Shown here in pieces: positions 9,001 to 63,417 of a stretch of 64,000 nt of DNA (the first letter of the stretch is position 1; each line of letters starts with the position of its first letter). A program made the translations under genes and the position numbers. Origin of the DNA: Schmidtea nova. Lineage: Eukaryota. The DNA is taken from the NCBI GenBank assembly GCA_044892505.1, contig CM097883.1:134974001-135038000 (forward strand). The letters run 5' to 3'. The notes beneath the pieces are model-generated. The model saw nothing but the letters and a program-made list of their open reading frames with translations, was not told where the DNA came from and ran no database searches.

Positions 9001-12000
9001 TGATTGAATTGGTTTGTTAATTTTACAATAAGAACATAAATATCGCAGTTAAAAGTTAAATTGTTGTTTACCTCTTCACAATCTATATAAATATAATCTG
9101 AATTTTTCTATTTTAATCCAGAACATGACATTGATGGAGTATTGAAATCGAAACAAACAGATGACCTTAGTATACAATGGAAACGGAGGACAATTTTAAC
9201 GGTAGAAGCAAGTTTTCCTCACCTGAAGCGGCGGCTTGAAGTTATCAGTATTAAAGAAATTGATTTTTCACCCATTGAAAGAGCTATTGATGAAATCCAA
9301 TTGAAAAATCGACAGCTAGCAACGCATCTTGCATACAACAAATCGACAACGATTTCCAAATCTTCCAGTTCCTCGACGGTTTCAAATTCCAATCAGACAG
9401 TTGGTTCCAGCCAAGCTAGAGCCAATAATATTCCATTACTAATGGACATGCACATGTCGGGTGCTCTTCTTCCTCAGGTCAATCAGGGTCCAATGGCTTA
9501 TGCTAGGGTATTCTTGCATAAGGAAAATCAAGCCAATTATTCTCAAGAGAAAGTGAAGCAACTGAAAATCCAATTCATGTAAGCTTTTAAAATGTTGATT
9601 TGTTTATTTACTAATTATAATTCGGGAAATGCTTATTACAATATTTATATATGCAAACAGTGGATAATTTGCATTACACTCCTCAGCTTTGGTACATTTC
9701 CTACTCAACCCACTCAAATGGCTTATATTAATCAAATTTGATAGTATTGTATATTGTATATCGCCCCAGGCGATTTCCTTGTCTCTATAGTTATGGAATT
9801 CCACTGAGTTATTGTTATTAGCAATTTCTATTTTGATTTTCTTACAATTATTTCCTTTCTCTTTGTGGCAGGTTAAATTCTACCATATTCACTCTCAGTA
9901 AATGTTCTTTGTTGGTTTTCTATTAGATTTAATTGAAATTTTACATGTCTTGCTTATGTTAANNNNNNNNNNNNNNNNNNNNNNNNNNNNNNNNNNNNNN
10001 NNNNNNNNNNNNNNNNNNNNNNNNNNNNNNNNNNNNNNNNNNNNNNNNNNNNNNNNNNNNNNNNNNNNNNNNNNNNNNNNNNNNNNNNNNNNNNNNNNNN
10101 NNNNNNNNNNNNNNNNNNNNNNNNNNNNNNNNNNNNNNNNNNNNNNNNNNNNNNNNNNNNNNNNNNNNNNNNNNATAAGACCAGGTCTTATTTTCGAGTA
10201 ATATAGGATTCTACAAATGTAAAAAAAATGAAAATAAGACCCTGGTCTTATTTTCGAGGGGTCTTATTTTTACAAAAAAATGAATATGAATTTATAAATT
10301 AAAAGTAAGTAATAAAAATTATTTATTATTAATTTATAATGAATCAATATCATCATTATCATTAGTGTCAATTGAATTCATTATTTCAACATTGGAGGAG
10401 TATAATATGTCTTTTAGTTTAGTATTTAGTAACTCCTCGTTCAAATTTAATAAATAAAATTATTTTATTTAATAAATAAAATTACTTAAATAAAATTAAT
10501 TCATGTAAACCATTTGATATTCTTTAAAAAATTAATAGAAAAATAATGATCACTGTCTTTTATTTTATAATCATAGAAAATAAATTTTAATTTTAAGGTA
10601 AAAAAATAAAAAAATGCTTGAAAATAAAAAAATGAAAATAAGACCCCTCAAAAATAAGACCGGGGTCTTATTTTNNNNNNNNNNNNNNNNNNNNNNNNNN
10701 NNNNNNNNNNNNNNNNNNNNNNNNNNNNNNNNNNNNNNNNNNNNNNNNNNNNNNNNNNNNNNNNNNNNNNNNNNNNNNNNNNNNNNNNNNNNNNNNNNNN
10801 NNNNNNNNNNNNNNNNNNNNNNNNNNNNNNNNNNNNNTATTTACTTTAATAATAATAATATAAAATGATGATTTATCGTTAGCAGCATTAATAAAATACA
10901 CCTTATTCTGTTTTTACACCAATTGTTTTTACACTAATACGATTTAACACGAATTGCTTTGTTTTAACACGATTTTCAATATGTTTTCAATACTATTTTT
11001 CCATTCAGCCAATATCTTTTTTTACACGAATTTTTTAGAAACGTATCTATGGTATAAAAACAGAATTAGGTGTAATATTAAATAAATAATAATAATAATT
11101 ATTATTATTATTATTATAAAATGGTGATTCCTTTTTAGCAGTATTAAGTATAAATAAACTAATAGATAACAAAAAAAGCCTTTGCTGCAAAATATAATTA
11201 ATTAATAATCAAATATATATAATTAATTTCGATTAATAAAATATATTTTGCAGCAAAGGCTTGTNNNNNNNNNNNNNNNNNNNNNNNNNNNNNNNNNNNN
11301 NNNNNNNNNNNNNNNNNNNNNNNNNNNNNNNNNNNNNNNNNNNNNNNNNNNNNNNNNNNNNNNNNNNNNNNNNNNNNNNNNNNNNNNNNNNNNNTATAAA
11401 CTATTCTTCTATTTTATTATTATTATTATTAAATAGTTTTATTTAAATACTATAAACTATTCTTCTATTTGTAGAAAATTCATATTAAATCTTCAATTTG
11501 TGCAGAATTGAAATTGTTTACTTTGGTTTTTTTCAAGATTTCTTTATTTTCTGATTAATTGATGAGATATATAAATTTACAAATTTAAATCTCTTTATTG
11601 ACTAACTGACGTTTTACTTTCCAAAATTTGAAATAGTTCAAGAATTTTCTTTATTTACATTGACTTCATAACTTCACCTTTTTTAGTTTGCAAAAAATTC
11701 ACAAAACGCCAAATATTAATTTATTCAAATAAGCTTTCTCAATAATTTATGATTCAATATTTTCTGTCTCTTTTATATTTATAATAATTCCTTTTCCTTT
11801 TTGTCCGCATTCCAATTTTTTCTCTTTTATAGTTTGATATTGAACGACACTTATTGTTAATTTTCTGGTCCATCTCCATACATTACATTAACATTAAAAC
11901 CGATTGGCAATTAAAATTTCGGTATTTTTTGGGCTTTTACTTATCCGCTTTTAAACTTATTAACCTGTTAACCGGGCTGGGCGTATTATTACGTCCAAGC

Positions 12001-16795: not shown

Positions 16796-17660
16796 GGCGC
16801 CCGACTTTACCGCCGCGACATAACCACCGTTGATATAAGCGCCGCTGTTAAACGACGACAATGCCGCTGCGACAATACCGCCGCCGACATAAGCGCTGGA
16901 AACCAAAATAAATTTTTAAAAATTTTTTATACAGTTTGTAGGAATGCTGATAACTTCGATTTTAATTTTTTTGTTTGAAAAGTAATATAAACATATATCA
17001 TTTAAACAAATTGACTAAATCAGAGAAAGTTGTTGTCGTGGAATTGATATATATCATATATAATTTCTACCATTAGGACTGTGAATAATACATTGATGAA
17101 TCACAAAATGCACTTTCCAAAAATGCATTGATGTTTCATAAACTGTAAACGATACTCGAGTATTTTGAAAAATACTTGAGTAATACTCGTAAATTATAAA
17201 TGATCAAATATTTCAAAAAAAATTAAATGTTACTTTATGTCGTTAGCTTAGAGTATGGCGGTAGAAAGGTTCAAGTAAAAAACGTCAAAGACATTATGAC
17301 TAAGAGGAATGCTTTTGCGGTTAAATGATAACACTCCCAGCTGTAGAAAAACAAAAAGGGCTTCCCAGCCAATTTACTGCCAGGCAATATTTTTTGCATT
17401 GTATTGACCGTCAATATTATCTAAATATCGAAACGGACTCGCTGACTATTGCTGCAGCTGTGTCCTTATTGATAACACTAAACCGTCCGTGGGAGTTTTA
17501 ACTCCCATAGTTCCATACGTCCCATAGTTTTAACTAAAACATCTGTATAATATGTACTTGTAAAATAAAATTTTGTATGGGGCGGTGGTTTTGTCGGCGG
17601 CGGCATTGTCGCAGCGGTTTTGTCACGGCGGTTTTGCCGGCGGGGGTATTGTCGATCCAG
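16796..17660. mobile_element. Foldback-type non-autonomous element with GC-rich tandem subrepeats in its TIRs
   Basis: ACCGCCGCGACA-type arrays at 16800-16900 are mirrored by TGTCGGCGGCGG arrays at 17580-17660; no clear TSD. Confidence 0.6.
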
Positions 17661-20751: not shown

Positions 20752-22827
20752 GGTTCTACCCCAAAAGGCCGACAGACAAAAGGCCGACAGACAAAAGGCC
20801 GACACGGACAAAAGGCAGACAAATAAAAGAACACTTGTAATAGCAAAAACTATTAAATAAAATCGGGGGATTCCTGGAAAATTTTTGATTTAGAATTTGA
20901 TTTAAAGAATTCTAAATCAAAAGTTTTCCAGGAATCCCCCGATTTTATTTAATAGTTTTTGCTATTACAACTGGGTTTTTTTTGTTAAAAAATGGTTTTT
21001 TGTTAAAGAGGTAATTATTATTTTAATTAGTTTAATGAAATGAAACATATATTTATATAAATTAAAGTAACTTAAAATTGTTAGTCAGTTAAACAGGGCT
21101 ATTTTAATAATTCAGTTAAACATTTTTAGTGCGTTTTTAGTAATTCAGTTGGGCATTTTAAGTGTATTTCTAAGGTAAGGAGAAAATTTATCTTTGATAA
21201 TATTAATATCTTTTATCTTTGATAATATTTTTATTATATTTTTTAGCTTTATTTAATTGAACTTTAAATATGGATCAGCAGACTGGTGAAATTTGTAAGA
21301 TTATTGAGTCGCAAAAGGGAAAAAATGATTGTTGTCAACGGTTATATAATGCAAGCATCGTAGTCACACATCAGTAGGGCTAAAAAGTGGAATTTGTTGT
21401 AATTGGCGAGCATGCACTTTTTTTATAGATGGCGTACATAAACTACGAAGTTCAACAAAGCACAACCATGCGCCAGATGCATCTAACCAAATTGTTATTG
21501 CTGAAGTAAGAGAAATAAAGAGCATTGCTTAGTCATGTCAAGATCAGCCGAGTCGAATAATTCAGGCGGTTACTAATCAAATGGGTACTGTATCTCGGTC
21601 ACAAATGCCATCAAATGCAGCATTAACAAAAATGATCAAAAGATCTCAAAACCGAAACAGTCCACGAGAACCAAATACACTTGCTGAATTAATAGTTCCC
21701 AATGATTTAAAATTTACTACCAAAAACAAATTGTTTTTGTTGAGGCAGAGTGATATTAGTAATGAAAAAGTCCTTTTATTTTCTACAGAAAATAACTTGA
21801 AGAAACTTGCAGAGTCCAATTACTGGATAATGGACGGAACCTTCAAAACTGCTCTTAATATTTTTTTACAGATATATTCAATTCATGCTCCTGTAGGTGG
21901 GGAAGAAAATTCTAGAATACTACCATTGGTATATTTTGTGATGTCTCGTAAATCAGAAGAAGCCTACAAAAGAGCCTTTGAAGATTTATGTGATTCTTCC
22001 GCCGAATACAATATTCAATTAGTTCTTTCATTTATAATTACTGATTTTGAAAAAGCAGCATTAGCAGAATTTCCAGGTGCAATAAATAAAGGATGCTTTT
22101 TTTACTTGTGCCAAAATATTTGGCGAAAAATACAAAATAGTGGCTTAGCAAGATTGTACGGAGACGACGAGAACTTTTGCCTTTTGATGAGACACATTGG
22201 GGCACTTGCTTTTCTACCAAGTTCAGAGATCATAGAAGTATTCGAAAGAGTTAAGAGTATCTTACCCGATAATGCTGCTGAGGTGGTTTCATGATTTGAT
22301 GAAAATTATGTGAATGGCCGCATAAGACGCATTTACAGAAATGGTACAGAAGCACGTGTTCCGCCACTCTTTCCACCAGAAATGTGGTCAGTTTTCGAGA
22401 ATAATAACATAGGCTTCCCTCGAACCCAAAACAAAGTAGAGGGAGGGCACAGGAGATGGCAGTTATTAGTTGGAAGAAATCATCCTGGAGTATTTCACTT
22501 AATTAAAGAGTTGAAGAAAGAACAGGAGCATGTCGAAGCAGAAATAGAAATTATTCTACGTGGTGAGCCCCGTCCTACACGCAAGAAGCAATATGTTGAC
22601 AGAGATGAACGGTTTGTAAATATTTTAAATGACCGACACAATCGTTCTGTGATTGATTTCCTTCGTGGAATAGCTCACAATTTAAATTATTTCTAATTTG
22701 TAATTAAATGTCGGCCTTTTTTTGTCTGCCTTTTGTCCGTGTCGGCCTTTTTTTGTCTGCCTTTTGTCCGTGTCAGCCTTTTGTCCATGTCGGCCTTTTG
22801 TTTATGTCGGCCTTTTGTCCGTATACG
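20752..22827 (+). mobile_element. Mutator-like (MULE, Phantom/foldback-type) transposon with FLYWCH-like and MULE transposase pseudogene
   Basis: Exact 9-bp TSD TTTTTTAAG (20743-51, 22828-36); TIRs built of ACAAAAGGCCGAC repeats. ORFs 21581-22294 and 22310-22696 carry MDGTFKT, LPLVYFVM, ITDFEKA, GCFFYLCQ and RTQNKVEGGHRR and are in frame across one TGA. N-terminal W.C..C..HNH region is frameshifted. Confidence 0.92.
20835..20970. repeat. Near-perfect 136-bp hairpin inside the MULE
   Basis: Arms of ~63 bp (TTGTAATAGCAAAAAC...GATTTAGAATT) with one mismatch and a 10-nt loop. Confidence 0.9.
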
Positions 22828-23884: not shown

Positions 23885-25039
23885 AGATAAGACATTTAAA
23901 GAATCATTATTTTAAAAGGGTATTTCTTACATAAATTTTAGTCTAGTCAAATAATCAGATAAACTTTGTTTTAAATGAGTAAAGATTTTACAGTCATAAT
24001 TAATAAATTTATTTTGAATAAGTCTATTTAATTTGATTAATTTATTTATTAAAATATTGAGATTTGTGTATTAAATATGCTTGTAAATTTTAAGTATAGT
24101 ATCATGTTCTCAAAAAAGATTTCCTTGGTGGGCCTGACAGCACACAAATGGGATTTGATAGGTACTACATGCTATAATTAAGGTTTCCATAGTAAACAAT
24201 TATAAAGAGGAGTTGCATAATGGTTACCAATTTCCAAGCGACTAAGTAAAAAAGCTAAAAATTATTTTAGCATTTACAACTTATATTTTCACTTTTGATT
24301 CCAATTTTCTTTTTCAAAATTTTTGTATTTACTCTTTTTTAAAAGCCTGTCGAAAATTTATGTGCATAATTGGGTTATTTTAGATTTGGTGGACATTAAA
24401 TTGGCTCTGACTCTGTATGTTTCTTAGATAATACAAACAACCCAACAAATAGTTAATTTTATTTGGTTAATAACAAATTTTTTACAGCTGTAATTTAAAT
24501 CCACTCGAAGGGTAAATAACTGATAGGCAAACAATTTCAAGAGCATCCTACTTTTGTCGTCCTTTGCTGTCTTCGACTAAAATGGCAATTTGATTAAAAT
24601 TAGTTGGTTTTAAATACTACTTTATTTTCATCAATCATTGCTGAAAACCCAATAAACTATTTACTATGTGATACCTCCATATTTCATACACAACGGACTT
24701 TCCTCTTTGAATCCAACATGTGATTTCGCCGCTGTCACATTTAAGTTTTACAAACTGTCTAATCTGAGATTTTTTGTCTCCCCTACAACAATGATTGGTA
24801 AGATTACTTAACCGCCCTACCTCTTTGAACGAGCGTGACTCGTCGTCAAAAAACTTCCCGGATCGCAACAAGTAGAGTGACGCTCGTTCATACAACAAAA
24901 GACGTTCCCTAGACCCACAAAACGAGCGTTACTCGTTCCTTGTAGTTATCTAGGTACCTAGTATGTTACATTGATATATGCTAATGATCAATAATATATT
25001 GTACAATAATATATTGATAATAATATATTGTATAGAGTG

Positions 25040-25354
25040 GTGTTGCAATATTTGGATAAATATCACTCTCCAGAATTTTCTTCAAAGGGAGGCAGACCAT
25101 CAAGTACTCCAAACCCTTTACGTCTCACAGAGAGGCATTTCATTGATACGATTCCGCCGACGCAAAACAAAGCGGGACAGACCAGGCGTTGCGTGGTGTG
25201 TTGCAACAAAACTGATGAAAGGGGGAAGAAAGTCAGAAGAGAGACGAGATATTGGTGCCCAGATTGTGACGTAGGATTGTGCATTCCATGCTTTAAATTG
25301 TATCACTCTAAAAAGATTTTTAATAATAAATGTAAAAAAATATTATTTTTTTAA
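25040..25354 (+). mobile_element. piggyBac transposase C-terminal cysteine-rich domain fragment (PGBD4-like)
   Basis: PLRLTERHF..RRCVVC..RRETRYWCPDCDVGLCIPCFKLYH; no upstream DDD domain. Confidence 0.88.
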
Positions 25355-27685: not shown

Positions 27686-28143
27686 GGTGTCCGGACAGAA
27701 TTACACTGGACAAAATTACACGGGACAAAATTACACAGAAGAAATTACACACACGAAAATTACACTAAGACAAAATTACACATTTAATTTGTTTGTGTTT
27801 TTATAATTATATTTTTATTATATTTTTATATTTATTAATTCATATACCACTAAAATTTAATTATTCCAACCCTTAAAATACAATTTTTTATTTTTTCAAA
27901 AAAAAAACATCAAAACTTACTTAATCCAACCCTTCAAAAAAAAAGGTTTTATATAAAAGAATTCATAAAAGAAAATTCATAAACACAAAAAAATTAAATG
28001 TGTAATTTTGTCTTAGTGTAATTTTCGTATGTGTAATTTCGTCCTTGTGTAATTTCTTCCCTGTGTAATTCTGTCTATGTGTAATTTATTCTGAGTAATT
28101 TTGTCCCGTGTAATTTTGTCCAGTGAAATTTCGTCATGTAACC
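27686..28143. mobile_element. Mutator/foldback-type MITE with AAATTACAC tandem subrepeats
   Basis: 9-bp TSD GTATTTTAA / GTATTTTAG; GG..CC termini; long TIRs made of ~15-17 bp units. Confidence 0.85.
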
Positions 28144-38518: not shown

Positions 38519-41500
38519 CTACTTCAGCAGCCATTTGGTTTTGGTTTTGTTTTTATCCTTCACGTCCAACGCATCCATTGACACCCGGAAATTCGTCTCG
38601 CGATTGCTTTCTTCCCAGGTCAAACGCTGAGCTTCAAAATTGTTTCTCTTGTACTCGATCTCTTTGATTTCGTTCTCTAATTGGTTTCCCATATCTCTTT
38701 CCGTCCGTTCGATCGTCTGCTGAAATTCCTCGAGTTTTCTTGTTTTCTCCGATACCTAATATAGAGATTAGATTTATTAGACTTATCCTGCTAATTAATA
38801 TTATTATTGTGCAAACAAATTCCCCTAACCTTCTGTTGGAATAAATGGTGCATGTCTTCTTCCATTTTTCGGATTTTAGCTTCAAACTCTCGCTTCTCTT
38901 CATCCATTTGACTCATCGGATCTTTGCCGTCAGTTACTCCAAATTGGCTGTCTTTTGCGAAATTGCTCATTTGTTCGCATCGATAGTTTTCGAACAGCAC
39001 TTGATCGGTCGTGTCCTTGATATCCTGGAGATGAGAGCTCAGTAGCAGAGTCCTCAAGGCAGCGAAATCGTTATGTTCGAGATTGTCGACTTCTACCACA
39101 CCCCAGGGATAGGTCCTTCCTCGGATTTTGTTGCCTCCCTTTTCAATGATTATGTTACTGCAGACAACAGCGAACGGTTGACGCTTTCGCTTGATTGTAA
39201 TATCTTTCCAGTTGGTTTCCCGGCCTTTAGCAACCGTGAGTCCCAGAGATATCGCTGCTGCTTCTTCGGGAAAATCGTAGATTTTAATTCCGTTTGTTTT
39301 AATTTGGTAGAGAATGGTTTTTTTGAATTCAGCGCACTCGTCTGGAATCAGCGTGTCGGCTTTTGCAATAATAGGAATAATATTGACTTTGGTGTGAATG
39401 CGTTTCATGAATTCAAGATCGAGTTGTTTCAGGCCGTGTCCGGTCGGCTCAATGAAATAGAGGCAAGCGTGGACGCGATTGTCCACGATTCGATTGCGAT
39501 GGACGCGATTTTGTGCATGCATATACTCCGTATATTTCGATTCTATGTATTTCAATACCGGATTCCAGCATTCAGAATTGTCGACTGAATCACCGAATCC
39601 AGGGGTATCAATCAATGTCAGTTTCAGTGACACTGAGTTTTCAGTGATGTTCACTGTCGTTGTGTTGATGTGGACGGTTTTTTGCGTTCTTTTTGTTGGA
39701 GGCTAAGGAATGTTTGATAATAGTTCATGTAGCTTTATCAATATATAGTCAAGATATCATTGTTATCACACTGTTTTAATAAGCGATGACCCTAATACGT
39801 TTAAAATGTCTATTGAAATTGTTTACAAATGGATCGAACATTCTAGGACATATAAACAGTCATTTTGGAGGTGCTCTTTATTCGAATTTATCACTACTTG
39901 TTAGTTTTAATTAGGGCTTATTTAATTCCATATTAATTAATTCATATTTATAATAGAAATTATTTTATCATTAACATCTCTTATTTTCACTTTTGACCTT
40001 TTCTTTTCTATTTTGGAAAATTTTATTTATAAAGACGATAAATTTTTTTTTAAAAACGAAACACAAATTTTTGGCACTTTAAACAGGCTGTGCCAAATAT
40101 TTGTGTGTTTTTAAAAGAAATTTTATCCAGTTTTTATAAAAATAAATAAAGACCATTTATCTAAAACCCAGGAGAGAATTTGGTAAAAATGATTTCAATA
40201 AAAAAATTTATATTTCTTCACCATTTATTGTTTTTCAATTTCCTCTATATTCATTTCTTTTTTAAACTATCAATCGATATTTATAAAAAATAAAACAATT
40301 AATCGATAGTTGAAAAAAGATTAATTGGTTTTGTAAAATTATAGATTCCCCGATAAAAAATGGAATTTGGATCGAGGAGAGATAAAGTTGCCAGCAGACT
40401 TACTAATTCATTGCGTAATAGATTTAATCAAACATAAAATACGCCCACATTTTTAGTTGTTGATTTACAGTTATTCAATCGCGTTTTTGATACAGAAAAA
40501 TGTCAATTGATTGCATATTTTATGCGTGACCCTCCCTTGTGGAATACTCTAACTGCTTCAAAATATTATGTTAAATAAAATATTTAATACAGAAAATTGT
40601 AACATTAAATCGAATTCTATAACGAAGCATCACAGACAAGTAGAAATCAATAATTAATCTGCAAGTCGGTGTGCAATCTGCTATAAATATACGCGAGAAA
40701 AATAAGCATCATTACTGCTATTGCACATTGCGTGGGGAATTCAATCAAATGCTTGGAACAATCATTAAATGCCAGACAGTGCCGTTCTACTCTATGACAA
40801 ATTCAATAAACACCACTCAAACGATGAAAAATAGTTTCAGAAACCCATAAAAATATTAGATATTTATCGCACAAGTCGAATGTTTCTATATTAAACAAAT
40901 TGTGTAGAAGCAAATGAACTGAATAAAATAAATATTTGAAAGTAATATTGAAAATTTATCAAACGCTGATGAGAAGAGATAATGTGGCGAGGTGAGTATG
41001 AATAGGATGAAACTCGATGCAATTATAGAAAGGTTCCGTCTAGGTATTATTAGTTTAGGAGTTCAGTCTCCAAATTAGGGTGTGCAAAAGGAATGATTAC
41101 AATATGTGTCACATAAGAGAGTTAACAAAATGAATAAGTATCAATGTTGCCTCGAAAACATGCAGAGAAACTGCAATTACAGCAGTTTCGTTCTTAAAGC
41201 AACTGGGAAACCATTATTCGTAGTTTTAGTAAATCTATTTTCTTAAGTACGTTGCATTTTTGGAGCTAAAAATTTGTGCACATTCAAAAATATTTTGAGA
41301 CCACTGGTGTAAGAGACTCGATCAAAAATTAAGTAATTTTTGTTACATAGAGAGGATCATCAACTTAGCTCAATAGAAACATTCGGAAAAGGCTGGTAAA
41401 TTATTTACTCAATTGAATAAATTAGTTTTGCAAAATCTCGGATTCATATATTGTATTTAATACTGAGTTGGAAATTAACGAATTTCAGAGAAAATGAATA

Positions 41501-47465: not shown

Positions 47466-47478
47466 TGTAGTGCCTTCG

Positions 47479-47554
<76 letters not shown>

Positions 47555-47983
47555 TTAATTATTTTTATATATGATATAAGTATATATTATTAAATTAAAT
47601 ATAGTTTATTTACAAATTGAGTAATGGTTGTTTTAATATTTACAATAAAAATATGGCAAGCAAACAAATTCAAAAGCAAAAATGACAGTTTCGTTAAATG
47701 AAAAGCAGCAAACAAATTTAGATGCAAAGATCACAGTTTCATTAAATAAAAAGCACCAAGCAAATTCAAATGCGAAGATGAAAGATTTATTAAATAAAAT
47801 CACCAAGCAAACTCAAATGCGAAGATGAAAGATTTATTAAATAAGAAGCACCAAGCAAACTCAAATACAAAGATGACAGATTTATTAAATATGTAGAAGG
47901 AAGAAAATCAATGCTCAACGCGCCGAGATTTTTGTTTAAATAAAATTTTATTATTTATAGTAATTTATTTCAGTGTCACTAAA
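47466..47983 (+). mobile_element. Gypsy-type LTR containing a (TA)n tract and 42-bp tandem repeats, followed by a degenerate PBS
   Basis: Starts TGTAGTG, ends CACTAAA, followed by TTGTGTCAGAAC; homologous to 50478-50779 in inverted orientation. Confidence 0.7.
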
Positions 47984-48351
47984 ATTGTGTCAGAACTGAC
48001 GGCTCTCCAGCATCAGAAAGTTATTATTACTTGGTCAATCAGATCCATCCACAGCCGCAACAAGTCGTTTACATCAGCATTATTCACAATCTCGGAGTGT
48101 CCTTGCCTCAACATCATTTTATTCAACCACAATTTACTTTCATTTCATCGGACAATCAGAATCATTTTCAAGTATTATTGGCTCCATTTCCGTTTGCCAG
48201 AAGTAACACTTCAACCCATATCATAAACCCAGTTGCCGTGGCACATCCCAATCATAATCAGAACCAAAAATACACAATTAGTCGACAACTTACCGTAACA
48301 ATGTCAATATTCTTTGTTGCTACTCCGTGCTCATTGCTAGCAGCCTCTCCG

Positions 48352-48461
48352 ACAACTGCCGAAGTTATGCACTCATTCCAACAACATCAAATATCTCAAC
48401 CGAAATACAACTGCCGAAGTTATGCACTCATTCCAACAACATCAAATATCTCAACCGAAAT
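48352..48461. repeat. Exact 55-bp tandem duplication
   Basis: ACAACTGCCGAAGTTATGCACTCATTCCAACAACATCAAATATCTCAACCGAAAT occurs twice. Confidence 0.95.
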
Positions 48462-48599
48462 ACAATAGGTTCACCAATCCAAATGATATGGCAATAAGTA
48501 TCATTTATTATATTTCTATAAATAAAATTTCTTCATATTTATCATAATTTTATATATATTATTTAATTAATATTGTTTTATAAATATTATATTATTTAA

Positions 48600-50457
48600 A
48601 TTTACCCTTCCCAAATTCTCTATCCCGCCTCTCTTCGGCCCTTTAACTACAAACAGCACCCATAATCCTAACCTAGATCCAACACACGATAACGATTCTT
48701 TCGCCAAAACCACACCGATACTACCAGCCTATATTCTCATACGTTTTAATAACATAATACGGGAAATCGCCGTTACTTCGGATCTACACACAGACATTGC
48801 CCAATCGCTTCGCATTGACAAGACCTCATGCTACGTGACGTCCAATGGTTCTTTAGTCTCCTCTTCTACCCAGCTGCAGTCTAATTCAATCTTGGACATC
48901 AACTGTCACATCTTAGGAGGCGGTAGAATCACAACAGAGCCATCTTCCTCATCCGGATTCCACTCCATTCTGTTTTTTTTAGACCAAGACCGTACACCTT
49001 CGTCGTGGTTTTGCATTTTAATAGCCCGCACGTCTATCCTTCCCGAAATCACGCGCAGATCATCTTCTCGACAGTTTACCTGCTGAATTGATATCGGAAC
49101 TGGCACCCAAAATCGCTGACTCCCTATACTCAGAGAATCAATACGGGAACTTAAAAGCGCTCATAGGTTCCAAATACACTTTCTCACAATCACAAGCCCT
49201 GCAAAAACTACTAGCACCACAACGTTATGCAGGCCAACAACAGAGCCTATTTTTGGCAGAGATCATTCGCTCCAACGACACCGCCATACCTGATCTTTCC
49301 AAAAACATACAGCTCTTAAAACATGAATTTCTTTCCGCACTTCCATACCACCTACAAACTTCTCTCGCATTGGTAGACTCGTAAGACCCATACCATCTTG
49401 CTAAAATAGCCGATCGCATTCACGAACTTCAACCCCATAAACCTCGCGCCGATATTTATACATCACCACCACCATCTCTCATCGTGAACGCAACACATAC
49501 ACCTGATAACCCCTACGCTCGCAACGTCGAAAGATATTCCAACCACACATCGCCGTCACATAATGAACAACATCCCAATCACCAACCAACGACACACACA
49601 CAAAACATACAACCCAATAATGACGCACAACTAATTTGCTTTTACCACAACCAATTTAGACAACATGTACAGAAATGCTGCATCGATTGCATGTCCGAAT
49701 TCCGTACACATCAGAATCCAATAATCCCAGTGTGTATTCACCATCACCTCTACAAGAATGAAGCCAGATCATGCCTCAACGGATGCACCTGGCGCACACG
49801 TGACGTTCATCCTTCAAAAAACTAACCCAGTCTTCGGACATTCCTGGACGCCCCGATGACTTACCGCCAGTGAATTCTCTTTCTCACAGCCAACGAAGTC
49901 CAACGCACATACGATCAACTGCGCCAACAAACACCATTTCCGAAATTAATATTGATCCTTCTACATTACAAGTACCTGGCTCTAAATTAATATTTAGTAC
50001 AGCACAAACCACCTCACCACCCACCACACCTCGCACAGCACTAGCATCAACACCCACACCAGTACAAACACCGCCAAGCACACCTCGCACAATACTAACA
50101 CCAACACCAACAAAGACACTACGCACAGCATTACCCACATCACCGCCAACAATATCATTCACAGTACCATCAACAACACGAATAACAATACCATAAGCAC
50201 CGCCTATTTTCTAACACGATGAAGCCAGCGCAGGCAACACGCATGTTCTACCACAGCCATCACAAACCACATTTCATGCACCACATCCAACAATGTCCCT
50301 CGTCACCACAAACAAGGCAGCCCTTACAATTATCTTACCTAGAATTGCCGGAAACTTCACAATCAACGCAGAACGGTTAGAAGAATATGGCCAACCCGAT
50401 CGACGCACCATAACACTACTTATAGACACAGGCTCCTCATATTCAATACTACCTACC
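48600..50457 (+). mobile_element. Gypsy gag and aspartic protease pseudogene
   Basis: Gag: PSSWFCIL, QYGNLKALIGSKY..LQKLL..LLKHEFLSALPYHLQ..LAKIADRI. Two CxxH..C..C knuckles (ICFYHNQF..KCCIDC; VCIHHHLY..SCLNGC) end at KN*. Protease motif LLIDTGSSYSILP lies in the -1 frame. Confidence 0.85.
49816..49850 (+). promoter_or_regulatory. -1 programmed ribosomal frameshift signal (gag-pol)
   Basis: A_AAA_AAC slippery heptamer in the gag frame immediately before TAA; GUC-UUCG-GAC hairpin nested in CCAG/CUGG just downstream; the -1 frame is open to 50196. Confidence 0.65.
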
Positions 50458-50779
50458 ATCCCACTTCTGACACCATTTTTAGTGACACTGAAATAAATTA
50501 CTATAAATAATAAAATTTTATTTAAACAAAAATGTCGGCGCGTTGAGTTTTGATTTTCTTCCTTCTTCATATTTAATAAATTTGTCATCTTCGCATTTGA
50601 GTTTGCTTGGTGCTTTTTATTTAATGAAACTGTGATCTTTGCATTTGAATTTGTTTGCTGCTTTTTATATAATGAAACTGTCATCTTTGCACTTGAGTTT
50701 GAGTTTGCTTGGTGCTTTTTATTTAATAAATCTTTCATCTTCACATTTGAGTTTTCTTGGTGCTTTTTATTTATGAAAC
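50458..50779 (-). mobile_element. Inverted LTR 3' part plus intact tRNA-Leu primer binding site
   Basis: Minus strand reads ..TCAGTGTCACTAAA-AA-TGGTGTCAGAAGTGGGAT (50475-50458), complementary to the 3' 18 nt of tRNA-Leu(CAG/CAA); carries the same 42-bp repeats as the 47466 LTR; cut by a hAT at 50780. Confidence 0.85.
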
Positions 50780-53700
50780 CAGGCCATATTTTAACGTGCA
50801 GTGATAACCAATTTGTGCAGTGATAAAAGGAAATGTATGCAGTGATAAAATGAAATTTGTGCAGTGATAAAATGTACTGTTTTTGTTAGAAATTTTGAAT
50901 TAGCGTGAAGTGTAATGTAATTTCTTATCATCTTGACATTGCTCCCCCGTTAATTTCATGCGATTGGTCCTTATTTCAATCACAGGATAGTGAGGCGCCT
51001 CATGCATAAGCAAAACAGACGTTTCATTTACTGGTAGCATTGAAAGCAACAAACCATGTTTTCCCTCATACTTTCATTTCACTCACACAACTAAGGAACT
51101 TACTTCTCTCTTCTGGAGTACCCCTGGCCTGTAATGTACTTGTGTGCAAACAGCCTATCCAACTGTGACAGAGCCGTCGCGCATGTGTCTCTCTGTCCAT
51201 ATAAATGTATGACCTTATGGAGAGAGTTGTTTGTCTTTCGCCTATCACAGACAGCCCTGTCAAAATATTTAATACAATGTATACACACGCTAGCGATTGA
51301 TAACCCCTACACCCCTAATTCTGATACTTTTAGCTGGAAAGCCTGCAAACGCGATGTGCATTAAAATTGTCCGGCAAACAGAGGGGACTAGCGCACTAGC
51401 CACAAAAGTTTGTCTGTGTGAAGGTGTGAATAGAATTTGCTGATTATGGAATTAGGTTTACATACAACGTTTTTATGAATACAGTGTAGTTTATAAAATT
51501 ATCTAATACGGGAATGGAACCCATGCGTGTGAATAAAATGTGCTTGAATACAGTCTACTGTCTCCTCCCCCTCATTAATTGTTGAAGCATACCCTCCTTT
51601 GGCCCTTTTTAAACAGTAGACTCGCCTACAACCAGTTTGTGAACCACGCACTAAGTATTTTTCCGTTGTCCGTGCATTCATTTTCCAGCATTCAGTTGTG
51701 ATTGAATTAGCTCAGGTGTTCTTGTCGTGTTAATCCAAATGAATATATTCGCTTTTTTTAAACCATCTCCAAACATTTCTTCAGTCAGTGAATTGCACTC
51801 TATTGAATCTATTCCATCAACCAGTTCTTCATGTGTTGTAGCCGGGAACTCCATTGATTATATTGAATCGTCTGACTCTTCATCCATTGTGTAACAGAAG
51901 TGTATTGATCCTCATGTGTCTACTGATTCTAGGTGTGATGTGTCTGAGAATACGGATTCCATTGAAACAACTGATTCTTCGTCTATTGTGCTACAGAACT
52001 CTGTTGATCATAAATCACCAGCTGGCTTCTCGTGCGTCGAAAATGTGCCAAACCACAAAGGCCAGCGCAAACGTGTGTGATGCCGTATTTATATAGAACA
52101 ACAAGACACTGCTAAACGGTTCTGTTACAGGCAGATGCTACCACCAATATGCACTGAAAGTGGGACTGAACATCGAAGCGCGGTAATTAAAATACATTTG
52201 AATAGTGACATCCATAAGGAGAGTTATAAAGCAGCTCGTCTTGCGTCCCTATCAATGTCTCAAAAACTTCAAGAAGTTCCTCTTATTAAATCAATAAACC
52301 AAATTAACACTAATCTTGCCGACAAAATCGGTGGACTGATGTATCATATGTACAATGATGCCAAAATCTATCAATTTCAACCTATTCTTTCCCATCTCGC
52401 GTAGTTGCAGCGGAAATGTCTAAATTATTCCACAATAATGAGCCATTCACTCCTTTCTTATCATCCAACATAGACCTACAATATATTTCTCCTCTGTCAC
52501 AGCACGAGATGATGGAAGCAATCGTAGTGGCGGATATGCCACGCTTCAAGCGTGAGAACGAAACATGTCTTGCTGCCTCCTTCAGGTTTGATTCTTCGAT
52601 GGATCTCACTCAAAAGGAGAACCAGTTTGAACTGATGAAAACGATAAACCCCAATGGCCATGAACGTTTACTATTCATTGGCATCGGGCAAGTCACAAAA
52701 AGTGGAGCAACTGGACATTTAAAGGCAATCAAAGAAGGATCAGAAGAAACCGTTAGCTTTGATGCCTTGTTTAACATAATCACACACTTGTCGACGGATG
52801 GAGAACCAAAAAATGTCAGGAAACATGAAGGTCTCTGGCCTTTTCTTGATCGAGAACGAAAAGAGTGACAAAGCAGTTTGCCCTAACCTAAATCCGTCTG
52901 TGGTGTTCATAGTTCGGCTTCGGCTTTCAAGGATCTATGCAAAAATGTGACAGACATATCTCATTTACTCGAGAAGGTTTCTGGTATATCCACTTATTTT
53001 CATATGAGCGCTAAGCGTTCAACCGAGCTCGAAACAGTTGCCAACGAAGGTGGACTGACAGTTCGACGTCTACCAAAATATTTTGAGGTCCGCTGGGCTC
53101 AGTTCTCTCACTCACTCTTGGATGCTGTTCTCTCTTTCTGGTGAGCTCTAACAAAGTATTTCAGCATAGTGAAAGGTTCTCAAAACAAGAAATTTTGGAA
53201 AATGTTATCGAACAAAACAAATATCCAACTGATGGCGTTCATGGCTGATATACTTTTTCTCCTAACTAATTTTCAAAAGCGGTTGCAGTCTGACTCAATC
53301 ACCATTGTCGACTTGCCCAAATAAGTGTCCCATTTTCTCAAAAGGCTGGAAACTCTACAAGGAAAACCTCTGCTTGGAGGATGGGAAGAAGCTCTCTGCG
53401 AGAATCTTACACCTGAGAATGTTTTACATGGTGTTCAACTTTGGGAAAAAGAACGTCGAATGGTTGCGAGAAATATGTTTGTGTCAGAAGAAAGAGACTT
53501 TTCTGCTGTTTGGCAAGAAACAGTTCTAACAATGAAACATTTCATGGAATCTCGACTTGCTCTCAGTGACACATACACAAATGCCGCCACAAATTTTGTC
53601 ATGTTCAAGGCGAACGATGAGGATATACGGAGTGTTCATCACACATTTGCTCCTGACCTTGACCTGTCAACGATTAATGACCAATTTACGGATGTTTTGC

Positions 53701-54100
53701 AAAGTTGCAACGAGAACAAAAAACCTTTGGAGACACTCCAGCAAATTTGCAAGTCTGAGCAATATGATGAGCTAGCTAAAGTGTTCAGCCGGATTTTGGT
53801 ATGCAAGCCACATTCTGCTGACTGTGAAAGAATTATATCAGCATGCAATCTACTCAAAACTTCTTCTCGCTCTTGTTTGGATAGGAAAACGATTAAAAAC
53901 TATCTGCACATTTTTATGAACATGCCACCTCTCTCTACCTTCGACCCACGGCATGCGGTGATGAAATGGATAAATGCGAAAAACAGAAGAGTCCGAGATA
54001 CTCCAAAGGCTCAAGACCAAGAATGGTCAAAAAACATTTTCATATCCCCCTGTCCAACAGAAAAAACGGAAACACTTGATATGAAATTAAAAAAAGGAAA
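50780..54100 (+). mobile_element. hAT transposon, KIAA1586/ZNF862-like transposase pseudogene
   Basis: Left end CAGGCCATATTTTAAC with four GTGCAGTGATAA-type subterminal repeats. ORF pieces HLNSDIHKESYKA..KIGGLMYHMYNDAK, SFRFDSSMD, STDGEPKN, PKYFEVRWAQF and RILVCKPHSADCERIIS..MNMPPLSTFDP. Right TIR not found. Confidence 0.85.
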
Positions 54101-54699
54101 TTTTGATGCATGTCATGTTTGTATGATTTCTCTGTGTTTATTCTCTTTCTCACACACACGTCCGGTGTTTGTATCAATTTCATTATTATTATCTGTTTAG
54201 TGTTGTTGTTTATATTATTAATCAAACAAATTGGAGGGCATTTCCGATCATTTAACATTCATATTTGAACAATGAGTCTTGGAAAACTTTTAAAGACAAA
54301 AATCTTTTAATTGAAAACATTCTTGTTGCTCGATATAGGTATCGAAAGTGAAAATTAGAGGGAAATGATTTTCCTTTTCAGAACTCTGCTGGTTGTCCAG
54401 CCTCAAATTCCCAATGAGTTGGAAGACCCAAGATCTCTATCTGAACTAGCGGTTGGCAACTGTATTCAATTTCACTTATAGGTTCGGAACAGTAATAATA
54501 AAAACCATCCAAACAGGTGAAAGCAGAAAACTAAAAGGGAATTAAGGTGTGTAAATTGTAAAGTGAACCAGGAGTAATAGACGGGGTGTTATTCGAATAT
54601 GTTTGATAATTATTAGGAGTAGATGTTAATTAGGATACAGTGAATTCATAGAAAGTTAAGCGTTGGTAAATTAAAGAAGACCTTAGAGCAAAGAGATTT

Positions 54700-55650: not shown

Positions 55651-57240
55651 ATGTCTCTTGCTGATACTATGCTCGAAGACTTTGAGATTGCCCAGCTCGA
55701 GGCGATCAATTCTGGAAATATGGGAGTTTTAGAAGAAGTCGGAGATAATTTCAATATTATGGAAGTAGAATTTTCTTTGGATAAGCCAGTAAATCAAATT
55801 GCCAAATTACAAGATAGTGACAAAGTAAATTTAAATCACTTCATAAAAACACCGAATAATTAAAAAAAATTTATATTTCAGTTAAAAGAAATAATGGAAA
55901 AAATTAAAGAATTCACATCCAAGGACCATAGATCAAGTTACGGGGCATTAGAATCAGATCCAGAATATCAATTGATTGTCAAGTCTAATGATTTAATCAG
56001 TGAAATCGACAATGAAACAAGTGTAATACACAAATATGTGAAAGATATATATGTTACTCGTTATCCTGAGCTGGCAACTGTTGTAACTGATCCAGTAGAG
56101 TATCTGAAAACCGTTAAAACATTCGGCAACAACATCAAAGACGTATCGAAACACACTAACCAACTCGGTGAATTCCTCATTTCAGCAACAATAATGGTTG
56201 TATCTGTCACTGCATCAACGTCAACTGGCACAGAATTACCAGAACAACGACTCCAGAACGTCATTGAAGCCTGCCATATGGCAATTAGTTTACAGAATTG
56301 CAAAAAATTTATCCTCCAATTCGTTGAATCGAGAATGCCGTTTTTCGCTCCAAATTTGAGTACGATTCTAGGCTCATCTGTTGCTGCAAAGCTGATTGGA
56401 CAAGCTGGTGGTTTGGCATCATTAGCAAAAACACCAGCGTGTAACGTGATGAATTTTGGTTCAGCGAAAAAAACCGATGCCGGAGTAATGATGAACACGC
56501 AAACATTGCGAGGCTGTGGATTTATCTATTTCTCCGAGCAAGTTCAGAAATTGCCGCCTGATCTCAGGAAAAAAGCTGCAAAACTTTATGCAAACAAAGC
56601 AGCAATGGCGTCACGAATGGATTTGTTGCACCAGTGCTCCAATGGAGAGGAAGGAATGAAATTCTTGCAACAGATTGAAAAACAGATCGAAAAATGGCAA
56701 GAACCGCCACCAGTGAAACCTATAAAACCGTTGCCAGCACCGATTGATATCCCATCGAAGAAACGAGGTGGGAGAAGGCATAGAAAAATGAAAGAACGAA
56801 CCGGAATGACGGAATTGAGGAAGAGTGCTAATCGAATGGAATTCGGAGGGATTGAAGAGTCGTATGAGAATGAGATTAGTATAAATGCTGGGCGGTTGGG
56901 CAAGACAAATCGGGTGAGGGCGGCAATTGTTGATGCGAAAACGAATGCGAGAGTGAGTAAATCACTCAATCAGAAATTGCAGCGACAGAATCAAGCGCAA
57001 CACGCCATCTGGGGTGGTACGACGACGTCCGTGAAGAAGATATCGGGATCAGCAACGACAGTTGCGTTTACTCCGTTGACAGTAAGCTGCAGATAATAAT
57101 ATTGTATTGGTAGACAATTAGCATTGCTTCAGGGGGTCGAGATATCAAATCCGGTGCCGCTAGAGGGCAGGAATGAGCAAGCGGCGATCGGTATGAAATA
57201 TTTCTCATCAAATGCAGAGTGGGTTCAACTGAAAAAATGA
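55651..57240 (+). CDS. PRPF31: U4/U6 snRNP protein Prp31, 493 aa, spliced
   Basis: Exons 55651-55824, 55882-57081 and 57133-57240 join through introns of 57 and 51 nt. Motifs MSLADTMLEDF, DPEYQLIVKSN, RYPELA, APNLSTILG, TPACNV, KWQEPPP, KKRGGRRHRKMKER, VAFTPL.GVEI.NP and KYFSS. Confidence 0.96.
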
Positions 57241-61336: not shown

Positions 61337-62461
61337 NNNNNNNNNNNNNNNNNNNNNNCAATACAATTTAATAAAAATTTATTCTTTTTAAATACAAATT
61401 TGAAAATCTACTTTACCAAAATAACTTGTTATTAAAACAAGTTATTTTATTTTTAATAAATACTATAATAAATATATAAATATTTATTATTGGAGGCACT
61501 ACAATGGCCCACGCCGAAGTGCGCGGAGCGTATGTAGAGCCATTGCAGTGGTGGAGTGCTTGGTAATTGAAGTGTTCATTGCTTTGAGTGATTGACTGGT
61601 TGGAGTTCTGAGTGCTTGGAGTTCGTGGCTCTTTAATGATTGGAGTGCGTGGTGCTTTGAGTGCTTGGAGTGCGTGGTGCTTTAATGAATTGTACTGCGT
61701 GGAGCTTTGAGTTATTGGTGCTTTGAATGCGTGGTGCTTGGAGTGTGTGATGCTTTGAGTGCTTGGTGCTTTAATGATTGGAGTGCGTGGTGCTTTGAGT
61801 GCTCGGTGCTTTGAGTTTTGAGTGCTTTGAGTGATTGGAGTGCGTGGAGCTTTGAGTGATTGGAGTGCTTGGTGCTTTGATGATTGGAGTGCGTGGTGCT
61901 TTGAGTGCTTGGTGCTTTGAGTTCTGAGTGCTTTGAGTGATTGGAGTGCGTGGAGATTTGAGTGATTAGAGTTCTTGGTACTTTGATGATTGGAGTGCGT
62001 GATGCTTTGAGTGATTATAGTGCTTGGTGCTTTGATGATTAGAGTGCGTGGTGCTTTGAGTGCTTGGTGCTTTGAGTTCTGAGTGCTTTGAGTGATTGCA
62101 GTGCGTGGAGTGCGTGGAGATTTGAGTGATTAGAGTTCTTGGTACTTTGATGATTGGAGTGCGTGATGCTTTGAGTGATTAGAGTGCTTGGTGCTTTGAT
62201 GATTGGAGTGCGTGGTGCTTTGAGTGCTTGGATTGCTTGGTACTTTGAGTGCGTGGTGCTTGGATTGCTTTGATTTGTCGCTTCTGACACCAATTGTAGC
62301 GATGTTGAAAGAACTACAATACAATTTAATAAAAATTTATTCTTTTTAAATACAAATTTGAAAATCTACTTTAACAAAATAACTTGTTATTAAAACAAGT
62401 TATTTTATTTTTAATAAATACTATAATAAATATATAAATATTTATTATTGGAGGCACTACA
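61337..62461 (-). mobile_element. TRIM-like non-autonomous LTR retroelement with satellite-like internal region
   Basis: 167-bp 5' LTR 62295-62461 (TGTAG...CTACA); PBS TGGTGTCAGAAG at 62292-62281; 3' LTR visible at 61359-61503 with 144/145 identity, the rest lying in the gap; no coding region. Confidence 0.8.
61555..62275. repeat. Hierarchical tandem array (TGAGTGCT/TGGTGCTT/GATTGGAGTGCG subunits, ~155-165 bp higher-order unit)
   Basis: Read directly; the higher-order block 61888-62040 recurs at 62042-62205. Confidence 0.9.
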
Positions 62462-62547
62462 ATTATTATTATTATTTTTATTTTTAAGGTACTCTTTATC
62501 CAAAATACTGTAATGAATCGAACCACAGTATTAACTGTCACAATACT

Positions 62548-63417
62548 ATGAGAAAATATTATAAATTGAAGCATTGTGGACAGAAATATTATGTTTGCCC
62601 AACATGTCAGACATTTGAATCTATATCCTATACTAAATTCTATGATCGTCATAGTGATCATTTAAATATTTTCAAAAATACCAAACAATTTGTTATGAGA
62701 AATATTGTTAAAAGGAAAGCATTGGTTTCACAAGACTCAAGACCTATTAAAATAAGGAAAGAAACCACCTCTGAAAATCTTTCAAAATACCATGAAGATA
62801 ACCTTATGTTTGGAGAAGGTGTAAGTGTTTCTCAAATTAATGATGAACCTGTGATAGAATATGATTTAAAAGGATCTCACCAATTTATCAAAATGAATAT
62901 TTCAAGATATAATGTCAGGGAAATAGAATTGCCAAATTCGTTGTTGGATAAATTAAAAATAGCCATATCTAAAATGAAACAATCAAAAATTCAATTTGGT
63001 ATTCAAGCAGAATTTGAAAAGGAAGGAGAAAATCAGATTGTATGCTTATCCAATCGTGCTGTCTATATTAATCCAACTTTTCTTGACGAAGGCATTAAAA
63101 AGTTAAATGAAAAAATTGAGTTATTGACTCATTTAGGAAGTGGATGGATATTAACTCGGATTTTAGAAGTTAATTTTAAAGTGGTAAAGGTCTCCAATAT
63201 CTCAAGATTATCGGGGCATAGTAAATTATTTACGCCTAAAGGATTAATTGGTAAAAAAGCTATTGTCAATGTTCAGAATTCAGATGATTTGTGTTTCATC
63301 TATAGTATTTTATCAATATTGAAATATGATGAAATCAAAGAACATAGAGATAGACCCACAAAATATTTACCATATATGTGTTGGGCCAAAACGCAATTTG
63401 TTTTAATAAAACGATAA
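62548..63417 (+). mobile_element. Polinton/adintovirus-type protein-primed DNA polymerase B, N-terminal region, truncated
   Basis: Uninterrupted 289-aa ORF with LGSGWILTRI, KGLIGKKAIVNVQNSDDLCFIYSILSIL and R..KY, characteristic of the N-terminus of Polinton-like pPolB. Similarity stops near 63378, where TGTTGGG, a possible LTR start, begins. Confidence 0.8.

Follow-up and report, generated by a model that had tools for sequence, protein, structure and literature searches.

Animal TRIMs are few, and their helpers are mostly unknown. Among flatworms, ta-TRIM of taeniid cestodes has LTRs of ~198 bp, a non-coding interior of ~590 bp and a Leu-tRNA PBS (PMC4558846). The element described here resembles it as a flatworm TRIM with a Leu-tRNA PBS and a putative PPT a few bases from the LTR; it differs in that the account of ta-TRIM, in the parts bearing on structure, describes no minisatellite interior and gives a 15-nt PPT and, in E. 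multilocularis, mostly 4-bp TSDs (PMC4558846). Similarly small and non-coding, with two LTRs, are PbTRIM of ants (480-781 bp, LTRs of 152-184 bp, Leu PBS; PMC3532108), biv-TRIM of bivalves (PMC6934838) and the animal elements Helenus and Ajax (PMC10886601), and tandem and solo forms occur among them (PMC3532108, PMC6934838, PMC10886601). A variable minisatellite body does not figure in the relevant parts of these three descriptions. Within the literature, repeat databases aside, we recognised neither a planarian TRIM of this kind nor an animal TRIM with a minisatellite body. Animal TRIMs as such are on record for cestodes, bivalves, ants and a number of further phyla, so that the new system which an earlier note on this DNA held possible is not supported.

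Plant LTR elements such as Retand and Dasheng reportedly carry internal tandem arrays. They are comparable to the present family in that short arrays of variable length sit in dispersed elements, whereas the plant elements are large and some of their arrays became satellites; in the present family it makes up almost all of the element and is probably linker-derived. Arrays of plant LTR elements are an established source of satellites, as illustrated by those derived from Ogre (PMC7004042), which also speaks against a new system.

The window, that is, the whole stretch of 64,000 nucleotides that we analysed, belongs to an AT-rich animal genome of 1.25 Gb. The element lies on its minus strand at 61337-62461, with a total length of 1125 bp and the following features.

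62462..62466, no strand: 5-bp TSD, matched at the opposite end, within a (TAT)n microsatellite
62295..62461, minus strand: 5' LTR, 167 bp, TGTAG..CTACA, AT-rich, internal palindrome at 62373-62409
62293..62294, minus strand: AT dinucleotide between 5' LTR and PBS
62281..62292, minus strand: PBS, a 12-nt complement of the 3' terminus of a genomic tRNA that we read as Leu(CAA)
61551..62272, minus strand: minisatellite body; C/A-rich words of 7, 8 and 9 bp, locally duplicated (periods 16, 49, 106 and 164)
61497..61550, minus strand: predicted RNA hairpin, arms 61539-61550 and 61497-61508, enclosing the G-tract and the start of the 3' LTR
61506..61533, minus strand: 3' motif common to the coding helper families, the gag-only derivative and the sister TRIMs
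61508..61515, minus strand: G-tract at the position of a polypurine tract, with a private G>T at 61511 in the window copy
61337..61503, minus strand: 3' LTR, 167 bp, a single mismatch against the 5' LTR

Much of the first description of this locus holds. The two 167-bp LTRs with ends TGTAG..CTACA have exact coordinates and one mismatch over their full length, the left LTR being completed over its initial 22 bp from the copy in the genome assembly (G000, locus L001). The interior, put at ~790 bp without an ORF, measures 791 bp, and its longest ATG-started frames encode 26 aa in sense and 24 aa in antisense; stop-to-stop frames of 100-238 aa are present only by virtue of the scarcity of T and G in the sense strand. 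The tRNA-Leu-type PBS is likewise borne out by the match of its 12 nt to the genomic tRNA that we read as Leu(CAA). An AT dinucleotide identical to the one next to the PBS also stands just ahead of the 3' LTR, and we infer that these spacers are the two bases trimmed by integrase from the cDNA ends. ATTAT flanks both ends of the copy, as proposed for the TSD; the insertion site is a (TAT)n microsatellite, so that the TSD of this copy is uninformative by itself. The 16-bp palindrome within the LTR (62373-62409 and 61415-61451) is kept in the window TRIM and in a sister family, TRIM-B. Helenus and Ajax differ in having LTRs with tRNA or 5S pieces (PMC10886601): for the LTR-borne tRNA, 5S or hammerhead pieces that mark Helenus, Cassandra and retrozymes, there was no Rfam match in L001, and no tRNA was found in the window.

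Our preferred reading, to which we give a probability of about 85%, is that the element is a young TRIM of several hundred copies, likely mobilised in trans by a CHCC-type Gypsy family, likely primed in the ordinary way by a tRNA and a G-tract, and filled with a minisatellite of variable repeat number that was likely born from a linker. No new transposition mechanism is revealed.

The family was delimited by genome-wide patterns and by inspection of individual copies. An LTR search of the genome gave 922 candidates, of which the best 40 were scored. The exact G-tract/LTR junction pattern has 266 matches and the exact LTR-start pattern 502, with none for either reversed control, and they recover 24/32 and 29/32 sampled copies. 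These counts correspond to ~280-350 elements, and the count of the repeat word permits up to ~450; the copies are dispersed over three large contigs, and the family is present in read contigs of four runs from one study. We analysed 44 independent single-unit copies, leaving aside tandem, chimeric and duplicated loci (L031, L033-L038, L159, L095-L108); both ends could be defined in 39, which are treated as complete, and the sample, drawn from best BLAST matches and exact patterns, favours young copies. Among the complete copies, 37 have a 5-bp TSD, 15 have identical LTRs and 31 have at most one substitution between them, in agreement with the initial view of a young, multi-copy, TRIM-like element. 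The variation in array length that the earlier note suggested looking for is extensive, as the internal sequences range from 130 to 1423 bp and all 44 differ from one another.

Complete elements measure 476-1753 bp (median 1007). The family fits a TRIM size bound of <4 kb (PMC4558846) and is similar in size to TRIMs of 1172-1449 bp (PMC4717578), the window copy measuring 1125 bp; a stricter wording of <1 kb (PMC6934838) covers just 19/39 complete copies. Three-LTR tandem forms, known from plant TRIMs (PMC4717578, PMC13570524), occur at L035, L036, L038 and L159. With LTRs, PBS, a PPT at the level of the family, TSDs, a non-coding interior and small size, the sequence features support its classification as a TRIM. 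That a local tandem duplication, a decayed fragment or a misassembly should merely resemble an LTR element has next to no probability: the window copy does sit in a microsatellite amid other repeats with a TSD that says little, but hundreds of dispersed copies on three large contigs have distinct 5-bp TSDs, a PBS and footprints of tRNA copying. Whole TRIM copies are also found inside tandem duplications of 16.4 kb (L094-L108) and ~1.6 kb (L120-L121), where they form part of macro-repeat units.

Minus-strand priming can be followed through the primer itself. In 45/56 TRIM rows the PBS agrees over 11-12 nt with the 3' end of a tRNA gene (Rfam tRNA). From its anticodon arm and long variable arm we read this gene as an intron-bearing Leu(CAA), which we also take it to be by similarity; ARAGORN gave three different anticodon calls for it and did not place its intron. 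The tRNA 3'-end pattern has 802 matches genome-wide, and among the matches listed most fall in one tandem array (L116, G000:C2 from 300.51 Mb), whose ~900-bp unit contains one gene each for tRNA-Gln, tRNA-Gly and the intron-bearing primer tRNA. Six dispersed matches to the 3' end received no gene call. A full 18-nt tRNA complement is present at 61 sites, including five independent TRIM insertions (L085, L086, L093, L094-108 and L120/121) and 7/30 loci of helper type, and in both kinds of locus the sequence after it resumes in exact register. In LTR replication the end of the primer tRNA is copied during plus-strand strong-stop synthesis. Since such a copy is what this step is expected to leave, the 18 nt are a direct footprint of tRNA-primed reverse transcription followed by normal second strand transfer.

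A further tRNA copy lies elsewhere in the window, within a decayed element of the CHCC Gypsy clade at 47466-50780 (71-76% to the gag-only derivative and to L058). After its gag-protease part comes an LTR in inverted orientation, which contains 48-bp tandem units and has the full 18-nt copy at 50459-50476; the arrangement looks like plus-strand strong-stop DNA joined the wrong way round.

For the plus strand, the earlier note had seen no classical polypurine tract and suggested non-standard priming. The window copy reads GGCGTGGG before CCAT and the LTR start TGTAG, a variant found in 1/63 junctions, while the family tract GGCGGGGG is read exactly in 50/63; at 61511 the family base accounts for 15385/15625 of the depth in read contigs of run X1. 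The absence of a classical tract was in part an effect of this private substitution. It is right insofar as the family tract is short, with five G, a longest pure purine run of 5 and two pyrimidines at its end. The G-tract and its C(C/T)AT-TGTAG junction recur in the coding helper, and the same G-tract is found in a second coding family, the gag-only derivative and TRIM-B. Among 13 metagenome relatives chosen at >=50% integrase identity, 11 end in 5-7 G, CTA(T), TGT, the other two contigs ending too early; ten of the 11 have a classical tract, with an A-rich purine run ahead of the G-run, and the closest (75%) has the same motif as the window TRIM. Because its position is constant in the helper and these relatives, as a comparison of the PPT position had been meant to reveal, we take the G-run as the conserved core of the PPT of this clade and the putative primer site. 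Short or impure tracts have precedents in the 7-bp PPT of biv-TRIM (PMC6934838) and in that of Tf1, which ends in CAA (PMC11042837). Plus-strand priming is thus likely to be standard and based on the G-tract, and the shared junction in a helper devoid of the long hairpin and in 11/13 relatives argues against the non-standard start.

The hairpin over the edge of the 3' LTR, first given as an 11-bp stem at 61498-61549, is indeed predicted there, with a stem of 12 bp spanning 61497-61550 (-27.4 kcal/mol, z -2.99 against 200 shuffles). The long stem is the most stable predicted fold in 41/55 TRIM junctions, where the mean fold energy is -26.9 vs -14.9 kcal/mol in the helper, and it is predicted in 2/2 copies of another sister family, TRIM-C, with a different arm sequence. 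Among junctions ending at the same base it was found in 0/17 of the helper, 0/3 of the gag-only derivative and 0/4 of TRIM-B, so that its conservation, which the earlier note had proposed to examine, extends to most TRIM junctions and stops short of these relatives. Stem-loops that pair the beginning of U3 with sequence ahead of the PPT have been reported for Sire elements and HIV, and there the account has the PPT exposed in a loop (PMC3601003). In the window TRIM, by contrast, the predicted fold places the G-tract in a paired stretch, and the long stem occurs in TRIM lineages only.

These stem-loops, the frequency of the fold in the window TRIM and TRIM-C, and the fact that 4/8 distinct substitutions in the left arm keep pairing would all suit a functional hairpin that directs a non-standard plus-strand start or favours the TRIM over its helper. 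We consider such a function improbable: the long stem is absent from the helper, gag-only and TRIM-B junctions, 12/60 copies have a stem mismatch, young TSD-flanked ones included, and within the family no two-sided compensatory change was seen. Nor does the arm change more slowly than the spacer (8 substitutions over 14 sites and 5 over 10). Template switching can perfect imperfect palindromes, and such an event would give the same picture. A smaller stem between a pyrimidine stretch and the G-run is predicted in the helper and several relatives. The folding predictions make it likely that the long hairpin is a dispensable extension of this smaller PPT hairpin, and as the helper lacks it, its RT does not need it.

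The machinery is likely to come from a coding CHCC-type Gypsy family, which would supply packaging, reverse transcription and integration in trans. A pattern of LTR end plus PBS has 1184 matches genome-wide; from those lacking a paired G-tract/LTR junction match we drew 36 loci, 19 of which belong to a 5.8-kb family with LTRs of ~596 bp. This family has at least 491 copies (491 exact genome-wide matches), a reading frame that encodes RT, RNase H and integrase and weakly matches the gag domain DUF7041, two CX2HX9CX3C knuckles in Gag, a Leu-type PBS and 5-bp TSDs in 12/15 cases. This family and the TRIM agree in the first 10 bases and the end of the LTR, in the AT spacers, in the PBS plus the next six bases and in the ~28-nt motif before the 3' LTR; the middles of the LTRs are unrelated, similarity being confined to the ends (score 40 vs a shuffle maximum of 32). 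The same ends are carried by the second coding family (L058), the gag-only derivative, TRIM-B and TRIM-C. Since the second coding family and the gag-only derivative share them, the helper is not unique, and on these sequence grounds the 5.8-kb family is probably the main one. Similar criteria, namely shared LTR start, PBS and TSD length, paired ta-TRIM with its helper lennie, which is not reported in intact form; the family found here is abundant and young, and its relatives form chimeras with the TRIM (PMC4558846). No helper was found for PbTRIM (PMC3532108) or biv-TRIM (PMC6934838), in contrast to the likely one of the window TRIM.

By its architecture the helper resembles the CsRn1 clade (CsRn1, PwRn1, AgCR), with whose members it shares the CX2HX9CX3C Gag knuckle, the order PR-RT-RH-IN, a single or frameshifted gag-pol and the GPF motif in integrase (PMC2582038). 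Described members use tRNA-Trp and make 4-bp TSDs, as opposed to the Leu-type PBS, 5-bp TSDs and two knuckles of the helper (PMC2582038); because of this difference in PBS and TSD we class it as no more than CsRn1-like, on the Gag knuckle. The nearest named proteins are 39-44% identical, and no named CsRn1 reference was among the matches. The helper pol frame already stops ~60 nt ahead of the LTR, which ruled out the 3' motif as its terminal part. The helper LTR contains a captured-looking piece of a nuclear-receptor zinc finger in many copies (L045:3881-4378, Pfam zf-C4, E 8e-08).

Several derivatives accompany the helper. The gag-only derivative, 3.6 kb long, has at least 40 copies, all 40 scored matches being 99-100% identical, and is very young (loci L155, L156, L124-L152); both it and the second coding family (L058:8272-9156) have a leader that weakly matches Ig V-set (E 0.004). 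TRIM-B has 15-bp units and an LTR 86% identical to that of the window TRIM over 111 bp, and TRIM-C has 21-bp units. Chimeras join the window TRIM to the gag-only derivative at a 4-nt microhomology (L037), to TRIM-B (L031) and to a leader piece (L091). Such products would be expected from RNAs sharing particles. The insertion at L031:1950-4430 is a single TSD-flanked unit, in which four 360-bp units, each made of a TRIM-B LTR, the 18-nt tRNA copy and the inverted 3' end of the window TRIM, precede a hybrid of window TRIM and TRIM-B; it is likely an aberrant product of reverse transcription.

The body of the element was initially described as 8/16/24-bp subunits in ~160-bp higher-order repeats; the building blocks are instead words of 7, 8 and 9 bp, and the ~160-bp unit is private to the window copy. 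In the window copy 79/84 parsed words are of 7, 8 or 9 bp, and such words cover 79% of array bases in 32 copies. Periods of 16, 24/25, 49, 106 and 155/164 are found in the window copy, while across 42 arrays the dominant period takes 21 different values, 164 being that of the window copy only (1/42). The higher-order periods are local duplications, and there is no fixed higher-order unit. Base composition is skewed (A 0.38, C 0.36, G 0.11, T 0.15), and the arrays fold less than shuffles do (-39 vs -48 kcal/mol).

How the arrays change is visible among related copies. Blocks of 25, 49, 115 and 155 bp separate the window copy from its nearest relatives. Fifteen segmental duplicates of one insertion, all with the same TSD, measure 919 (nine), 968 (two), 1017 (three) and 1066 bp (one), in steps of 49 bp to which repeat collapse or expansion in the assembly could contribute; since all derive from one insertion, the array must have changed at the DNA level afterwards. 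In another set of three segmental duplicates the array is unchanged (580 bp in all three). All four 5' array types were found with two LTR types, and two markers ~40 nt apart are fully linked in 43/43 typed copies. The combination of array and LTR types points to exchange inside the array, which likely takes place during reverse transcription, as the copies concerned keep matched LTRs and TSDs.

We also considered whether the repeats act as antisense tethers to the PPT/LTR junction of the helper. Duplex energies beat those of shuffled arrays (p<0.05) in 2/15 segments only, and against a shuffled target there was no advantage either. A frequent word at 61551-62272 agrees with the reverse-complemented LTR start at all bases but one, with 12 such matches vs 0.1 in shuffles; with negative pairing tests, this complementarity is one post-hoc coincidence.

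The origin of the array is clearest in TRIM-C, whose repeats are traceable to a gag-protease linker: positions 29-694 of its 753 match the gag-end/linker of decayed gag-pol elements at 73-79% identity, and in 10/30 loci, all decayed gag-pol elements, the segment lies between Gag and protease with 2-6 copies of the 21-bp unit. In TRIM-B the 15-bp units are mostly in frame and encode an Ala/Pro/Ser/Thr-rich chain like that of gag-protease linkers. The array of the window TRIM has the base make-up of such linkers, and its 7-mers are shared with TRIM-B above shuffles (p 0.004-0.03, 3/3 copies). Direct alignment to TRIM-B beat shuffles in 1/3 copies only; no 7-mer sharing above shuffles was seen with the linkers at hand, and its parent was not found among coding elements and linkers, alignments to which were no better than shuffles. 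On balance, composition and shared 7-mers tip slightly towards a gag-protease linker origin for the window TRIM as well. Locus L037 had been considered as an array growing out of a gag-pol linker and was rejected, as 29/30 loci continue differently and L037 is a chimera.

The three sister TRIMs and the gag-only derivative all keep C/A-rich sequence that is linker-derived or linker-like, and even the shortest TRIM copy keeps several words. It is conceivable, if doubtful, that the C/A-rich RNA of the gag-protease linker would serve as packaging signal of the clade, repeatedly captured by miniature parasites, and that the TRIM arrays, far from being filler, would be its multimerised, tunable Gag-binding words.

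The earlier note further proposed a mobile satellite seed, in which the array would escape the LTRs and grow into long tandem blocks. Once inserted, arrays do grow and shrink by whole units, tandem duplications of 1.6 kb and 16 kb carry entire elements, and plant LTR arrays gave rise to satellites (PMC7004042). The distribution of the repeat word nevertheless makes this very improbable here. A 25-mer of the word has 981 matches genome-wide and 1.8 per sampled element, which is consistent with 280-450 elements. Among the matches listed, the first 100 of the 981 (first 212 Mb, contig C1), 33/33 clusters lie inside elements, all between or beside the PBS or 3' motif, and the longest array among the copies examined is 1.4 kb. 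Free arrays, such as plant elements have formed, were absent from these first 100 matches, a search that a diverged satellite lacking the word would escape. The body is a minisatellite, not a satellite.

Under our preferred reading of a trans-mobilised TRIM, the LTR would drive an RNA that is co-packaged with helper RNA. The tRNA read as Leu(CAA) primes the minus strand, as its footprint documents, its last 18 nt sometimes becoming fixed in new copies. To judge from conservation, RNase H would leave the G-tract as plus-strand primer, two bases short of the LTR; integrase inserts with the 5-bp duplication seen in the TSDs. The array gains and loses whole units after insertion, as seen among duplicates, and may be reshuffled by template switching between co-packaged RNAs. 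The young TRIM and its likely helper share one genome with two sister TRIMs, a gag-only derivative and chimeras of these elements, and this genome also has primer-tRNA footprints and a route from coding linker to mobile minisatellite that can be traced in one sister TRIM. The packaging needs of TRIMs and the rise of tandem repeats inside LTR elements become testable in an animal.

The remainder of the window is varied. A 309-aa open frame of high read depth at 62488-63417 starts 27 bp from the element and has no Pfam match; we take it to resemble the region upstream of Polinton-type DNA polymerases. Host genes or exons for Prp31, a septin and a DOCK-family DHR-2 exon lie at 55660-57240, 38791-39702 and 9097-9582. 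Decayed DNA transposons at 21533-22696, 25010-25354 and 52000-54200 are of MULE, piggyBac-like zinc finger and hAT type, and minisatellites of 15-17 bp, some in inverted pairs, are found at 17581-17654, 20762-20829, 22708-22822 and 27694-28139.
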